The translations under genes were made by a program, and so were the position numbers. This document shows positions 879 to 38,486 of a DNA stretch of 64,000 nucleotides, piece after piece (the first letter of the stretch is position 1; each line of letters starts with the position of its first letter). The notes under the pieces were generated by a model that saw only the letters and a program-made list of their open reading frames with translations, had not been told where the DNA came from and made no database searches. This stretch comes from a virus: IMG/VR virus record IMGVR_UViG_3300025085_000010, positions 1 through 64,000 of that record. One strand, 5' to 3'.

Positions 879-905
879 AGGGGGTACAAAAACCCCCTCT
901 TTTTA
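879..905 (+). terminator. Rho-independent terminator
   Basis: AGGGGGT-acaaaa-ACCCCCT followed by CTTTTT. Confidence 0.75.
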
Positions 906-992
906 TACCCATATATAAGGATTATGCCTTAAAAAGTATTAAAAAAGGCTTTTTAAATGGCTTTCCTTTGTTTATATCGTTCTTAACAAGTC

Positions 993-1043
993 TGTGGAAA
1001 AGGTATCATTTACCTGTGGATAAAGGTATATTTCTGTGGATAA
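993..1043 (-). repeat. Three tandem DnaA-box sequences
   Basis: TGTGGAAAA (993-1001), TGTGGATAA (1015-1023) and TGTGGATAA (1035-1043), which read TTTTCCACA/TTATCCACA on the minus strand. Spacing 22 and 20 bp, AT-rich flanks. Confidence 0.7.
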
Positions 1044-1191
1044 GTGTGTTTCTATGTGTTAATTAATGATGATTTAAATGTGTCATAGAGTAGTGATCTT
1101 TGCCCGCAGGCTATCACGAACACACAGAAATGTCAAGGGGGCGCTGATAAGTTTTTCTGAGGATTGACATCGCAAATTTATCAGTCTTTCT

Positions 1192-1199
1192 TATAAATA
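1192..1199 (+). promoter_or_regulatory. T4-type late promoter motif
   Basis: Exact TATAAATA in non-coding DNA upstream of ORF 1270. Confidence 0.45.
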
Positions 1200-1211: not shown

Positions 1212-1240
1212 TTGACAATATCCCTCAGGCAGTCTATACT
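1212..1240 (+). promoter_or_regulatory. sigma70-type promoter
   Basis: TTGACA (1212-1217), 17 bp, TATACT (1235-1240), 30 bp upstream of ATG 1270. Confidence 0.85.
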
Positions 1241-1269: not shown

Positions 1270-1446
1270 ATGTCAGTCGCTATCAGTCAGGCACAAAAGC
1301 AACGTTACAGAATCACCCTGGATTTAGAGGTGATGGAAGACTTCAACCCACACAATATTGATTGGGAGAATCTATTTGAACTGGAAGGAAATGAGCAGCT
1401 GATTGATAGTTACGTAGAGGACCTGAGTAATCCTGTCAGGTGGTGA
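1270..1446 (+). CDS. Small hypothetical protein (58 aa, MSVAISQAQKQRYRITLDLEVMEDFNPHNIDWENLFELEG...NPVRW)
   Basis: Read manually (below the track cutoff). It has its own consensus promoter and resembles small conserved cyanophage proteins. Confidence 0.75.
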   Translation: MSVAISQAQKQRYRITLDLEVMEDFNPHNIDWENLFELEGNEQLIDSYVEDLSNPVRW

Positions 1447-18856: not shown

Positions 18857-20410
18857 ATGGCCGCAATAATTACGGATCAGATTAGAATATTGAATGCAAA
18901 GAATTTTGTTGCGGGGGTAAACAATTCCTCTAATGCATATTATTCTTTTGTTGGTTTGCCAAACCCAGCAGATTATCAATCTACTTGGGATTCTGATCCC
19001 CCTTCACCAAAAGATAATTTTACCGAAGAGGATGATTATTGGGATACCATGATCGCTTTGAAGAAAATTAATTCTGCAGATGCAAAGCAGGTTGTTCCCA
19101 AGAGAACTTGGTCCTCAGGAACGACCTATGACATGTATCGTCATGATTACAGCAGATCAAATACCGCTGTAATTTCTGGATCTACGTCACTGTATCTTGC
19201 AAACTATTTTGTATTAAATAGCGACTTCAGAGTTTATCTTTGTTTGCAAAATGGTATTGATCCCGATAATCCATCGGGAAGACCATCCTTGGACGAACCA
19301 ACTTTTACTGATTTAGAACCTAAGGCGGCTGGCACTAGTGGTGATGGTTATATCTGGAAGTATCTTTACACTATTGCTCCAAGCGATGTAACAAAATTTG
19401 AATCGACTGATTATATGCCAGTTCCTGCAGACTGGTCAACTGCAACTGATAATGCTGCAGTAAGAGATAATGCCGTTGATGGATCTATTAAGATTGTCAC
19501 GATTACTAATAAAGGTGTTGGTCTTGGCACTGCAAACTCGACTTATACTTCCGTTCCAATTAGAGGAGACGGCACAGGAGCAGAGTGTACCATAGTAATT
19601 GATGCTGATTCTAAAGTTAGTTCTGTAACAGTTTCTGCTCAAGGTTCAGGTTACACCTATGGAAATGTTGATTTAGTTGCTGGTGGAGTTCCAACAGGAA
19701 CCACTAGACCAGCATTTGATGTAATTATTCCACCACAGGGTGGTCATGGTGCTGACATCTACAGAGAATTGGGTGCATATAATGTTCTCCTTTATTCAAG
19801 AATTGAAAATGATAATGAAAACCCAGACTTCATTACAGGTAACCAAATTGCCAGAGTCGGTGTTATAGAAAATCCACAACAGTTTGGATCTACAACTTTT
19901 CTTTCAGCAGATAAAGCAAGTGCTCTTGGGGCATTAAAATTAGTTGGGACAGGATATAGTACAGCAACATTTACTGCTGATGCATATTTCATTCAAACAG
20001 TTTCCACAGGAACAACTGCTGTAGGAAGAGTTATTAACTATGATCAGAATACTGGAGTATTGAAATTCTGGCAAGATAGATCTCTTGCTGGATTTAACAC
20101 CGTTGGAACTGCACAAACTCAACCAACATATGGGTTTGATTTGACAGAGTTTACATCATCTCCTGGGACTGGTGGAGCACTGACTATCGTACCATCAACT
20201 GGACAAGATTTGACTATTGATAGTGACTTTACGGGTATATCTACAGTAATAAATAATCGTACATACTATCTTGGTCAAACTTTTACGAGTGGTATTTCTA
20301 ATCCTGAGGTCAAAGCGCATTCGGGAAACATCATTTACGTTGACAACCGACCAGCCATAACTCGATCAGCGAGTCAAAAGGAAGACATAAAAGTTATTTT
20401 GCAGTTCTAA
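18857..20410 (+). CDS. gp8: Baseplate wedge subunit gp8
   Basis: YRHDYS, RVYLCL.N, DGYIWKYLYTI, and C-terminal SGNIIYVDNRPAITRSASQKEDIKVILQF. Confidence 0.93.
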   Translation: MAAIITDQIRILNAKNFVAGVNNSSNAYYSFVGLPNPADYQSTWDSDPPSPKDNFTEEDDYWDTMIALKKINSADAKQVVPKRTWSSGTTYDMYRHDYSRSNTAVISGSTSLYLANYFVLNSDFRVYLCLQNGIDPDNPSGRPSLDEPTFTDLEPKAAGTSGDGYIWKYLYTIAPSDVTKFESTDYMPVPADWSTATDNAAVRDNAVDGSIKIVTITNKGVGLGTANSTYTSVPIRGDGTGAECTIVIDADSKVSSVTVSAQGSGYTYGNVDLVAGGVPTGTTRPAFDVIIPPQGGHGADIYRELGAYNVLLYSRIENDNENPDFITGNQIARVGVIENPQQFGSTTFLSADKASALGALKLVGTGYSTATFTADAYFIQTVSTGTTAVGRVINYDQNTGVLKFWQDRSLAGFNTVGTAQTQPTYGFDLTEFTSSPGTGGALTIVPSTGQDLTIDSDFTGISTVINNRTYYLGQTFTSGISNPEVKAHSGNIIYVDNRPAITRSASQKEDIKVILQF

Positions 20411-35050: not shown

Positions 35051-36829
35051 TTGATGGCTAAGAACGGACGCTGCCCTGCAGGACAATACTACTGTTATAC
35101 TGATAAAGTATGCAAACCAATTCCTAAGGGATTTAGGGTTGTAGGACCTTCTGGAATGCTTCGTAAAGAAAATGGTCATTCTGTGGATGACAATACCGAA
35201 ACCAAAAAGAATGGTAACGGTAATGGAAATGGTAATGGTAATGGTGGAGGAGTAAGTGAATCGAAAAGTGGTGATTCTTCTCTGCGTGACTGGTTTGGCA
35301 AGAGTAAGTCTAGTGATGGCAAGCCTGGTTGGGTTCAACTGGGTGGGAAATACTCTGGAAAACCTTGTGCCAAGCAACCAGGACAAACCACAAAGCCAAA
35401 GTGCGGTTCTTCAAAAATGAAACGCAATCTCTCTAAAGATGAGGAACAAGCAGCGTTTCGTAGAAAGAATAAAAAAGATCCAAATCCAAATAGATCAGGG
35501 AAGGCAATTAACGTGAATACTGAAGAATTTACAACACTACCTTTACAGATAGAAATCCCAGATAATATTAGAGATTTCAATCTTGGACTTATGTTCCGTG
35601 AAAGTTTGGATATAAACAGTGGTATGCTCTTTATTTTTAATGAAGTGGCAGACCAGTCATTTCATATGACTGAAACAAAAATTCCTCTTGATATTGCTTT
35701 TATTAGAGAGGATGGCATAATCGAAAGTATTAAACAATTAGAACCATATGACGAGAACCCAGTTGCCTCAGATGGAGAGGTTCTGTGTGCATTAGAAGTA
35801 AATCGTGGATGGTTCGCGGAAAATAATGTAGAAGTGGGTGACGTGATTGATATTGAGGAAGGCGAGAAAGATGCTTGCTACCATAAAGTCAAATCACGTT
35901 ATAAAGTTTGGCCAAGTGCATATGCGTCAGGAGCACTAGTCAAATGTCGTAAGAAAGGTGCTGCTAATTGGGGTAATAGCACAAAGAAGGAAGAAACTGA
36001 AATTAAAGAGAGTCACAAGAATCCTGAAAGTGTGAAAGGTATTGCCAAGGAACTTGATAAGGCTGTCGAGATGCACAAGAGTCAGGCAAAAAGACTCAGA
36101 AAATCTGGTGTATCTGAAGCATGTTGGAAAGGTTATGAAAAGAAAGGTATGAAGACCATGTTTGGAAAGAGATATCCAAACTGTGTTAAGAAAACCAAGA
36201 AAGAAGAAGTTGAACTTATTGATGAAAAGAAAGGATGCAACCACACTCATGAAGGTAAAGACTGTCCTGTTCATGGAATGTCTCCATGTGATGGACCTCA
36301 AGGTGGAAATGGAGGAAAACCAGGTCCAGATAAAAATTATGTAAAACCTATGGGCGAATCCATAGATGAGGCAGTTAGAGTTCCAGCAAAGACTGGAAAC
36401 ATCATCGATACTTATTTCAACTATAGAGGTAAGTATTATGCTTTAAAGATGTTCTTCCCTCAAATCTCAGTACCCAAAAAATCTGATGTTCAAGATCAGG
36501 TTTCTAAAGTATATCCTGGCGCGAAACTATTAACTTTTAACGTTTCAAGCTATGTACCAGGGCAACCACTCCTTCACGTCGAAGGAGCAGCATGGACGAA
36601 AAAATCAGGAAAAAATAAAGAAGGTGGACTCAACGAAAAAGGACGAAAGTCTTATGAAGCGCAAAATCCAGGATCTGACCTTAAAGCACCAAGCAAGAAG
36701 GTTGGAAATCCCAGGAGGGCATCCTTCTGCGCTAGAATGAAGGGAATGAAAAAGAAACTGACTTCATCGAAAACTGCAAACGATCCAGATAGCAGAATCA
36801 ATAAGTCACTTAGAAAGTGGAATTGCTGA
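35051..36829 (+). CDS. Modular basic, Cys-rich protein containing a DUF192-like domain (592 aa)
   Basis: GLMFRESL....GMLFIF.......FHM.ETKIPLDIAFI...ALEVNRGW......VGD is DUF192-like. Flanked by short K/C-rich modules. GATAAATA at 35024-35031 and AAGGAG upstream. Confidence 0.75.
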   Translation: MMAKNGRCPAGQYYCYTDKVCKPIPKGFRVVGPSGMLRKENGHSVDDNTETKKNGNGNGNGNGNGGGVSESKSGDSSLRDWFGKSKSSDGKPGWVQLGGKYSGKPCAKQPGQTTKPKCGSSKMKRNLSKDEEQAAFRRKNKKDPNPNRSGKAINVNTEEFTTLPLQIEIPDNIRDFNLGLMFRESLDINSGMLFIFNEVADQSFHMTETKIPLDIAFIREDGIIESIKQLEPYDENPVASDGEVLCALEVNRGWFAENNVEVGDVIDIEEGEKDACYHKVKSRYKVWPSAYASGALVKCRKKGAANWGNSTKKEETEIKESHKNPESVKGIAKELDKAVEMHKSQAKRLRKSGVSEACWKGYEKKGMKTMFGKRYPNCVKKTKKEEVELIDEKKGCNHTHEGKDCPVHGMSPCDGPQGGNGGKPGPDKNYVKPMGESIDEAVRVPAKTGNIIDTYFNYRGKYYALKMFFPQISVPKKSDVQDQVSKVYPGAKLLTFNVSSYVPGQPLLHVEGAAWTKKSGKNKEGGLNEKGRKSYEAQNPGSDLKAPSKKVGNPRRASFCARMKGMKKKLTSSKTANDPDSRINKSLRKWNC

Positions 36830-36836
36830 GTAATTT

Positions 36837-38486
36837 ATGTCTGATAATGTATACCTTGGCAATCCCAATCTAAAAAAAGCAAATACTGCAATTGAATTTA
36901 CTCAAGATCAAATCTATGAGTTTATGAGATGCAAAGAGAATCCTGTTTATTTTGCTAATAACTATGTTAAGATTATTTCTCTTGATGAGGGTCTGACTCA
37001 ATTTCACCCATATCACTTTCAAGAGAAGTTAATCAATAACTTCCACAATAACAGATTCAATATCTGTAAGATGCCACGTCAGACTGGTAAGTCTACTACT
37101 GTGGTATCGTATCTTTTGCACTATGCAGTATTCAACGATAGTGTTAATATTGGTATCCTTGCAAACAAAGCAGCAACTGCTAGAGAACTTCTAGGAAGGT
37201 TACAGACTGCATATGAGAACTTGCCCAAATGGATGCAGCAGGGTATTATTGCATGGAACAAAGGATCTCTGGAGTTAGAAAATGGCAGTAAGATATTGGC
37301 AGCTTCTACGTCTGCAAGTGCTGTCCGAGGCATGTCGTTTAACATTCTCTTCCTCGACGAATTCGCATTCGTTCCAAACCATGTTGCAGACTCGTTCTTT
37401 GCATCTGTTTATCCTACTATTACTTCTGGTAAAAACACCAAAGTAATTATCGTATCCACCCCACATGGTATGAATCACTTCTACCGTTTGTGGCATGATG
37501 CAGAAAAGAGTAAAAATGATTACATTCCCACAGATGTCCACTGGTCAGAAGTTCCAGGTAGGGATGAAAAGTGGAAAAAGACCACTATTAAAAACACTTC
37601 AGAAGCACAGTTTAAAGTTGAGTTTGAATGTGAGTTCCTAGGATCAGTTGATACACTGATTGCACCAAGTAAATTGAGGACTCTTATCTATGATAATCCA
37701 ATCAAAAAGAATGCTGGATTAGATGTATATGAACCATCTCAAGAGAAGCATGATTATGTGATGACAGTTGACGTTGCAAGAGGAGTTGGAGAAGACTACT
37801 CTGCATTTGTTGTTGTTGATATCACAGAGTTTCCTCATAGAGTCGTAGCAAAATATAGAAATAATGATATTAAACCGATGTTATTTCCCAATATCATCTA
37901 TGAAGTAGCAAAGAGTTATAATAGTGCCTTTATCTTATGTGAGGTAAATGATATTGGAGATCAAGTTGCAAGTATTCTTCAATATGATTTGGAATATCAG
38001 AACCTATTGATGTGTTCTATGAGAGGTAGAGCAGGTCAGATTGTTGGACAGGGATTCTCCGGTAAGAAAACACAACTTGGCGTCAAAATGTCCAAGACTG
38101 TAAAAAAAGTTGGATCACTTAATCTCAAGACTCTTATTGAAGAAAATAAACTTATCTTTAATGACTATGAGATTATTTCCGAGTTAACAACATTCATCTC
38201 AAAGCATAATTCATTTGAAGCAGAAGAAGGTTGTAATGATGACTTAGCGATGTGTCTTGTCATTTATGCATGGTTAGTCCAGATGGACTACTTCAAAGAA
38301 CTGACAGACCAAGATGTTCGTAAAAGATTATATGAAGAACAAAAGAATCAAATTGAACAGGACATGGCTCCATTTGGATTTATAGATGATGGTTTAGACG
38401 ATGAGAGTTTCTCTGATGGTAATGATAGATGGTTTAAAGCAGATGAATATGGAGATAGATCATTTATGTGGGAATACCTTTCTTAA
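36837..38486 (+). CDS. gp17: Terminase large subunit gp17
   Basis: YLGNPNLK, Walker A PRQTGKSTT, Walker B ILFLDEFAF, STPHG, and nuclease DVARG...DYS...DDL. Confidence 0.97.
   Translation: MSDNVYLGNPNLKKANTAIEFTQDQIYEFMRCKENPVYFANNYVKIISLDEGLTQFHPYHFQEKLINNFHNNRFNICKMPRQTGKSTTVVSYLLHYAVFNDSVNIGILANKAATARELLGRLQTAYENLPKWMQQGIIAWNKGSLELENGSKILAASTSASAVRGMSFNILFLDEFAFVPNHVADSFFASVYPTITSGKNTKVIIVSTPHGMNHFYRLWHDAEKSKNDYIPTDVHWSEVPGRDEKWKKTTIKNTSEAQFKVEFECEFLGSVDTLIAPSKLRTLIYDNPIKKNAGLDVYEPSQEKHDYVMTVDVARGVGEDYSAFVVVDITEFPHRVVAKYRNNDIKPMLFPNIIYEVAKSYNSAFILCEVNDIGDQVASILQYDLEYQNLLMCSMRGRAGQIVGQGFSGKKTQLGVKMSKTVKKVGSLNLKTLIEENKLIFNDYEIISELTTFISKHNSFEAEEGCNDDLAMCLVIYAWLVQMDYFKELTDQDVRKRLYEEQKNQIEQDMAPFGFIDDGLDDESFSDGNDRWFKADEYGDRSFMWEYLS

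Follow-up and report, generated by a model that had tools for sequence, protein, structure and literature searches.

A conserved array of DnaA boxes in a gene-free and possibly origin-like module of T4-like cyanophages

Bacteriophage T4 is the textbook case of replication that is initiated without a cellular initiator, and its relatives, the T4-like cyanophages, are among the most abundant marine viruses. T4-like phages supply a replisome and a helicase loader of their own, and we know of no need that they have for DnaA; to our knowledge, the replication origins of T4-like cyanophages have not been mapped. Host DnaA boxes are known, however, in the control regions of other phages and plasmids, including lambda, P1, F and pSC101. 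Lambda is the precedent for a phage that exploits host DnaA, its boxes acting on a promoter that activates lambda's own O/P-dependent origin, while in the iteron replicons P1 oriR, F, pSC101 and RK2 the host DnaA boxes are accessory to the origin. The datA and DARS loci of Escherichia coli act through DnaA occupancy. Among the T4 origins, oriF and oriG each combine a promoter with an AT-rich unwinding element that lies downstream of it (PMC3016281), and in cyanobacteria the consensus box of oriC is TTTTCCACA (PMC4674748). No paper in a literature search connected cyanophages with DnaA boxes or with a mapped origin; on that search, DnaA-box arrays in T4-like phages appear to be unreported.

The window, i.e. 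the whole stretch of DNA analysed here, covers the opening 64 kb of an IMG/VR record (79 kb) from a T4-like cyanomyovirus, whose nearest isolates are the Synechococcus phages S-SM2 and Bellamy (family Kyanoviridae). The record is a 37%-complete fragment. Within the window, a run of small ORFs stops at a terminator-like hairpin (879-898) with a T run behind it; the next approximately 365 bp have no conserved ORF, up to a 58-aa ORF (1270-1446) that is conserved, beyond which lie further small ORFs and two baseplate genes, gp25 and gp6. The features of this interval are as follows.

879 to 905, plus strand: intrinsic terminator-like hairpin and T run; a 7-pair stem with 5 G-C pairs, then CTTTTTATAC
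906 to 990, no strand: AT-rich block, candidate unwinding element; 27% G+C, with A-tract/T-tract junctions
980 to 988, plus strand: decayed inverted box R1, TTCTTAACA; faces R2, 4 bp away
993 to 1001, minus strand: DnaA box R2, TTTTCCACA, the cyanobacterial consensus; invariant at 8 of 9 columns across 16 distinct close relatives
1015 to 1023, minus strand: DnaA box R3, TTATCCACA; the least constrained, with 5 of 9 columns invariant and TGTGTATTA, TGTGGAGAA and others in relatives
1035 to 1043, minus strand: DnaA box R4, TTATCCACA; 8 of 9 columns invariant, W alone varying (7 T to 9 A)
1075 to 1117, no strand: right-arm element, TAAATGTG and then GTGATC...TATCAC, from the alignment of relatives
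1108 to 1136, minus strand: putative leftward sigma-70-like promoter P_L; TTGACA (reverse complement of 1131-1136), 17 nt, TAGCCT
1192 to 1199, plus strand: TATAAATA, a late-promoter-like word kept in close relatives
1212 to 1240, plus strand: early sigma-70-type promoter P2; TTGACA, 17 nt, TATACT, 11 of 12 matches
1270 to 1446, plus strand: conserved 58-aa early ORF, phrog_12516, the anchor for relatives

Read directly, the plus strand carries TGTGGAAAA at 993-1001 and TGTGGATAA at both 1015-1023 and 1035-1043; the minus strand of the same three sites is TTTTCCACA, TTATCCACA and TTATCCACA, all in one orientation and with start-to-start spacings of 22 and 20 bp. TTWTCCACA occurs nowhere else in the 64-kb window, for which 2.1 matches are expected, nor elsewhere in the 79-kb record. 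Three randomly placed sites would fall within <=51 bp with a probability of ~2e-6, or ~5e-7 if they also had to share one strand. The initial annotation of this DNA had reported three same-orientation 9-mers, spaced 22 and 20 bp apart, in non-coding DNA after a terminator, and that description is borne out by the direct reading, by the hairpin at 879-898 with its T run, and by the lack of conservation of the only overlapping frame. Its AT-rich flanks are likewise real (27% G+C at 906-990 vs 38% for the window), the box word that it called typical of cyanobacterial oriC matches the consensus TTTTCCACA in PMC4674748, and the genome-wide count of TTWTCCACA that it proposed places all three matches of the 79-kb record in one cluster. 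The repeat unit that it drew, CTGTGGAWAA(A)GGTAT, fits copies one and two but not the third, which continues GTGTG. The overlapping frame, a 32-codon TTG-start ORF (968-1066), is not regarded as a gene, nor is the annotation SSM2_086 over the S-SM2 boxes accepted as one, because relatives differ there by 1-nt indels and by swaps of the whole cassette.

With the 58-aa ORF as anchor, 80 related viral loci (L003-L082) were fetched; ten isolate records and, from a pattern scan, more distant loci were compared along with them. Of the 70 distinct related intergenic sequences, 37 carry two or more exact boxes at the homologous position, so that the check for conservation in other cyanomyoviruses came out in favour of the boxes; the isolates that bear them include S-SM2, S-PM2, Syn9 and ACG-2014d. 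Nearly all of the relatives' boxes share one orientation, with a spacing of approximately 21 bp, or of 42 bp where the middle box has decayed, and the TTTTCCACA form accounts for 67 of 83 box instances. At the position of R1, many relatives, as well as S-SM2 and S-PM2, have an intact TTCTCCACA or TTTTCCACA. In the 16 distinct close relatives that have the three boxes in the same register, a column-by-column count gave 16 of 18 invariant columns in R2 and R4 together vs 17 of 42 in the spacers, and the sole variable column of R2, and likewise of R4, is the A/T (W) position of the DnaA consensus. Amid unrelated flanks, TGTGGAAAA persists in ACG-2014d and in a series of viral loci (L085, L116, L121, L133, L149, L115 and L139), and S-PM2 and Syn9 also retain it despite unrelated flanks. 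The S-PM2 arrangement is TTTTCCACA-ACGT-TGTGGAAAA-AGC-TGTGGAAAA, adjoining the conserved right-arm element, and in Syn9 an opposed pair of boxes adjoins that element approximately 1.7 kb upstream of a baseplate wedge gene. The complete S-SM2 genome record (190,789 bp) has one box cluster; isolated S-SM2 boxes (47093 and 101562) fall within coding sequence, and we count them as background.

Many cyanomyoviruses keep the 9-mers at the same site, and the W position alone varies; both observations support selection on the 9-mers as DnaA-box words. It is probable that DnaA binds the array. That the boxes might instead have no function, being a chance cluster or the decaying relic of captured DNA, could be read from the decay of R1 in the window and of R3 in relatives; with a clustering probability of ~5e-7 and a core conserved across genera while its flanks drift, such an explanation is very improbable.

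Some isolates show further arrangements of repeats in this region. In ACG-2014d (NC_026923), two opposite-orientation TTTTCCACA pairs (36773-36803 and 37690-37709) bracket a 0.9-kb segment of small ORFs. The RefSeq entry of S-PM2 (NC_006820, 18400-20200) has annotated tRNA features, two of them over boxes; ARAGORN finds no tRNA in that 1.8 kb, and the feature coordinates of NC_006820 look shifted. To the right of the S-PM2 box module, at 19440-19620, is an AT-rich repeat field that has AAGATTTCTTAAGATTT three times in tandem as well as opposed AAATCTCA/TGAGATTT words, and that resembles an iteron field.

An alignment of the relatives reveals a constant framework flanking a variable middle. The order of the module is terminator, AT-rich block, variable cassette, an approximately 45-bp element with a leftward promoter-like site, and early promoter. 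In about half of the relatives, some of them very close, other motifs occupy the box slot: Bellamy has no box array there, and exact boxes form no cluster in P-HM2, S-RSM4 or P-SSM2. One alternative cassette is a GAGAA-nn-TTCTC palindrome that opens a block of approximately 75 bp ending in ATTCTCAA; further alternatives are GATAGT...ACTATC and, in MITS9220M01 (L198), GGTGATATT repeats. The block that GAGAA-nn-TTCTC opens contains GTATCT/GGGTCT repeats, and non-box motifs lie at the position of window 975-1050 in Bellamy (L002, 2463-2480) and in L039, L059, L066 and others. From their sequences, these motifs look like alternative binding cassettes. On a tree of 60 loci built from adjacent conserved DNA, the box cassette has been gained, lost or swapped at least six times and is still clustered, the shuffled mean being 19.9 changes. 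Among the 80 loci, 29 end <450 bp upstream of the 58-aa ORF, 28 of these at a contig end, and the run-out peaks at approximately 170 bp, with eight loci at 150-199 bp, i.e. at the edge of the variable cassette. Assembly breakage at a cassette that is polymorphic in natural populations is the probable cause of the run-out; a physical genome end is not favoured. Since about half of the relatives lack the boxes, these are not essential to the module, and since the scaffold is kept in either case, whatever the scaffold does cannot have DnaA at its core.

This interchange bears on whether the 9-mers might be iterons for another protein, whether phage-encoded or another host factor, in which case their identity with DnaA boxes would be coincidental or convergent and the alternative cassettes would be iterons of other specificities. 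Besides the swapping of the cassette for other repeat or palindrome sets at the same position, such a reading could draw on the private 12-nt iterons of T4 oriE (PMC3016281) and on a weak extended preference around the boxes (C before TGTGG, G after AAAA). Against it stand dozens of lineages that match the host consensus at 9/9 positions, the predominance of TTTTCCACA and a tolerance of W changes only, just as DnaA tolerates them; no candidate binding protein was identified. We regard this explanation as unlikely, and binding by DnaA as the better account of the words themselves.

The search for the DnaA DNA-binding domain (domain IV, PF08299) found none in this partial record or in S-SM2 and Bellamy, the latter two being the results that cover complete genomes; a control search found the domain in ten bacteria. 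Since no DnaA domain was present in the phage records searched, any DnaA at the array would be the host's. Perfect boxes number 14-19 per genome in Synechococcus WH7803, RCC307 and MIT S9451, which is no more than a control word, and none of these three complete marine Synechococcus genomes has a cluster of three perfect boxes. In the thrC-dnaN gap, the expected place of oriC, WH7803 and RCC307 have only boxes with one mismatch. Given host genomes without a comparable cluster, the phage array would be the densest set of perfect boxes in the infected cell. A conserved convergent host pair, TTTTCCACA-N35-TGTGGAAAA, was seen in WH7803 (1819368/1819412) and MIT S9451 (207001/207045) (L297, L298), with TTCTCCACA 169 bp upstream, a DUF1818 gene adjoining and dnaN far off; it might be the true oriC or else a locus under DnaA regulation.

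The host counts are also what speaks for a datA-like sink, the second of the two roles offered by the initial annotation, in which multiplying phage arrays would titrate host DnaA and so stall initiation of the host chromosome. With three boxes per phage genome vs 14-19 per host genome, a few dozen phage copies would outnumber the host sites several-fold, and to that extent the numbers fit. No feature of the locus supports the idea, however: the array is optional and often lost, there is one small array per genome, and it is embedded in a scaffold of promoter and AT-rich block that a sink would not need. Stalling host initiation would, moreover, be of little obvious value in a lytic infection lasting hours. 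Like datA and DARS, the array is a DnaA-box cluster outside oriC, and datA itself works through IHF-dependent hydrolysis of DnaA-ATP. On balance, a sink is quite improbable.

The scaffold has its own record of conservation. A hairpin is present at the terminator position in relatives as well, and the AT-rich block is kept in relatives both with and without boxes; its stability falls in the lowest 1-2% of windows, without being the minimum of the 64 kb. A recognisable version of the right-arm element occurs in nine isolates from at least eight Kyanoviridae genera (alignment A1). This non-coding element, TAAATGTG and then GTGATCTTAGCGNGCA..CTATCAC, is kept more widely than the boxes, and it may be the real core of the module. 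In S-SRM01-like phages (L202, approximately 1180-1500; L128, L135, L147), at least eight copies of ATCTCGACGAG / ATCTAGACGAG fill the DNA from the right-arm element to the anchor ORF.

Overlapping the right-arm element is the putative promoter P_L, which is aimed through the boxes into the AT-rich block and has no ORF downstream. Its -10 in the window, TAGCCT, matches at 3/6 positions and fails a promoter scan; most relatives have TAGACT after TGn. Of 62 distinct relatives, 58 reach a -10 score of at least 4/6, and 59 have the -35 at a distance of 139-143 bp upstream of the ORF. This site and spacing are not kept in S-PM2, Syn9 or ACG-2014d. From the predicted leftward start, the boxes, co-oriented with P_L, lie approximately 57-107 nt downstream and the AT-rich block approximately 110-190 nt downstream. 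On the other side, the early promoter P2 precedes the 58-aa ORF and is conserved in all relatives. The depth of RNA-library contigs climbs from P2 onward, which is weak evidence. The RNA data are assembled contigs of metatranscriptome runs without strand or end information; in these contigs, the ORFs to the right of 1108 are covered and the box region is almost bare (one run, depth 7-8), so that they speak neither for nor against a leftward transcript. A further TTGACA at 1164-1169 ('P1') is not considered a sigma-70 promoter, because it lies 22 nt from TATAAA. A perfect 7-bp inverted repeat, ATGTCAA/TTGACAT (1130-1136 and 1164-1170, with 27 bp between the arms), is followed by the invariant TATAAATA, which is identical to the T4 late-promoter consensus; with the repeat and this late word in succession, the 58-aa ORF may have both an early and a late promoter. 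No Rfam family matched 600-2100. Beyond the anchor ORF, a promoter at 1515-1543 is followed by approximately 170 nt without an ORF (1544-1712), which start with a GC-rich hairpin, are largely conserved in Bellamy (L002, 2930-3090) and have no Rfam match.

DnaA is a known transcription factor that can block elongation in E. coli, and lambda pR is stimulated by DnaA; the layout just described can also be read as one of DnaA-dependent transcription control. The array would then be a roadblock or attenuator of a leftward non-coding transcript, or an insulator or activator of the early (1212-1240) and late-type (1192-1199) promoters, and what is tuned to the state of the host would be early-region expression rather than replication. 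Such a role would suit boxes placed approximately 57-107 nt past the predicted leftward start and co-oriented with it, a module set between a terminator and promoters, and a cassette that is swapped for operator-like palindromes (GAGAA-nn-TTCTC, GATAGT...ACTATC). It sits poorly with the 170-240 bp that separate the boxes from the early promoter downstream, with the lack of any overlap between a box and a promoter hexamer, and with the absence of the putative leftward promoter in S-PM2 and Syn9, which retain boxes. The separations are also not those of a DnaA-regulated promoter, as the boxes are at least 65 bp from the leftward -10 and at least 170 bp from the early -35. Transcriptional control is rather unlikely, and it comes next in likelihood after an origin-like role, ahead of another binding protein and, lastly, of a sink.

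Of the roles considered for the array, an origin-like one is the most likely, and the locus can be set against several kinds of origin. For origins of the oriC type, the basal unwinding system is defined by tandem DnaA boxes with <=2 mismatches to the host consensus (PMC8287927); the locus has three exact boxes in one orientation, with the AT-rich region adjacent at 906-990. For the DnaA-trio, (NAN) at least three times and 0-16 bp downstream of a box (PMC8287927), the search returned a run of 3 at offset 8, a length that 61% of shuffles reach, and runs of 2 to 5 in relatives. The module is thus like cyanobacterial oriC (PMC4674748) in its box word, its AT-rich neighbour and its number of boxes, three being similar to Cyanothece oriC; it is unlike it in having a trio run no better than shuffles and in lying beside neither dnaA nor dnaN, whereas the cyanobacterial boxes are next to dnaN (PMC4674748). 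Compared with the R-loop origins oriF (uvsY) and oriG (gene 34) of T4 (Kreuzer and Brister 2010, PMC3016281), it is found in the same type of virus, likewise without a phage initiator protein, and has, within a short non-coding stretch, a promoter-like site directed toward an AT-rich element, the AT-rich block lying downstream of the predicted leftward start. The T4 origins, however, use MotA-dependent middle promoters, with no host DnaA and no box cluster, whereas the cyanophage module has hexamers of the sigma-70 type in its putative P_L, no MotA-box layout, and DnaA boxes between that site and the AT-rich block. Direct repeats at 20-22 bp beside an AT-rich region also recall T4 oriE and the iteron plasmids; unlike those, the window has no identified Rep-type initiator and no private iterons, the repeats being the DnaA boxes themselves, and no replicon initiator gene was identified among the neighbouring ORFs. 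Lambda differs in that its boxes serve the promoter for an O/P-dependent origin. The cumulative GC skew of complete S-SM2 climbs steadily from approximately 4 kb through the rest of the genome and does not turn at the module; as the genome is transcribed in one direction, the skew is uninformative on an origin. The gp59 helicase loader is annotated in Syn9, P-HM2 and HTVC008M.

The initial annotation had offered either an origin opened by recruited host DnaA or a DnaA sink, and had thought either unusual for T4-like phages. Outside the cyanophages the last point stands, as T4, KVP40 and the pelagiphage HTVC008M have isolated boxes only and no cluster; within the cyanophages the array is common. 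Tandem TGTGGAAAA arrays, often CCTGTGGAAAACT x3 to x9, were also seen in many unrelated viral contigs (L083-L162) of 25-65% G+C, which indicates that DnaA-box arrays are widespread among phages generally. What survives of the interpretation is that the box words are conserved, that they match the host consensus and that no DnaA domain was found in the three phage records searched; the choice between origin and sink was too narrow, given boxes that are optional (missing from about half of the relatives, with at least six swaps) in a scaffold independent of them.

The reading that we prefer, at somewhat less than even odds, is that the array is a docking site for host DnaA that assists or times an origin-like module. 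It is an argument from architecture: a single-copy, conserved, gene-free module in which a promoter-like site is aimed at an AT-rich block as in T4 oriF/oriG, and in which the boxes lie two helical turns apart. DnaA binding, activity of the leftward promoter and any role in replication are all inferred. Early in infection, host DnaA would sit on the same face of the helix at two or three boxes spaced by 20-22 bp; bound beside an easily melted AT-rich block, it would help to open the duplex or to keep it open; a leftward transcript could contribute, as at the R-loop origins of T4; and the start of phage replication would thereby be tied to the state of the host initiator. An essential role of the boxes is disfavoured by their optional presence, by a trio search at the level of chance and by the carriage of a gp59-type loader.

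Should the array serve transcription alone, or have no measurable effect, it will be a modest footnote on the architecture of the cyanophage early region. Otherwise, a conserved single-copy array makes the start site of cyanophage replication directly testable in cultured isolates, of which S-SM2, S-PM2, Syn9 and ACG-2014d bear boxes, and it makes testable, too, whether these phages read the replication or energy state of the host; natural box-bearing and box-less sibling phages provide a ready-made comparison. A bolder and more doubtful proposal than docking at an origin-like module is that a single conserved origin scaffold in T4-like cyanophages takes interchangeable initiator-docking cassettes, the commonest of which recruits DnaA. 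In cyanobacteria, DnaA status follows light and growth. Were that proposal true, the first round of phage replication would be licensed by the DnaA status of the host, and a host-sensing origin would exist in a virus family thought to initiate without a cellular initiator.
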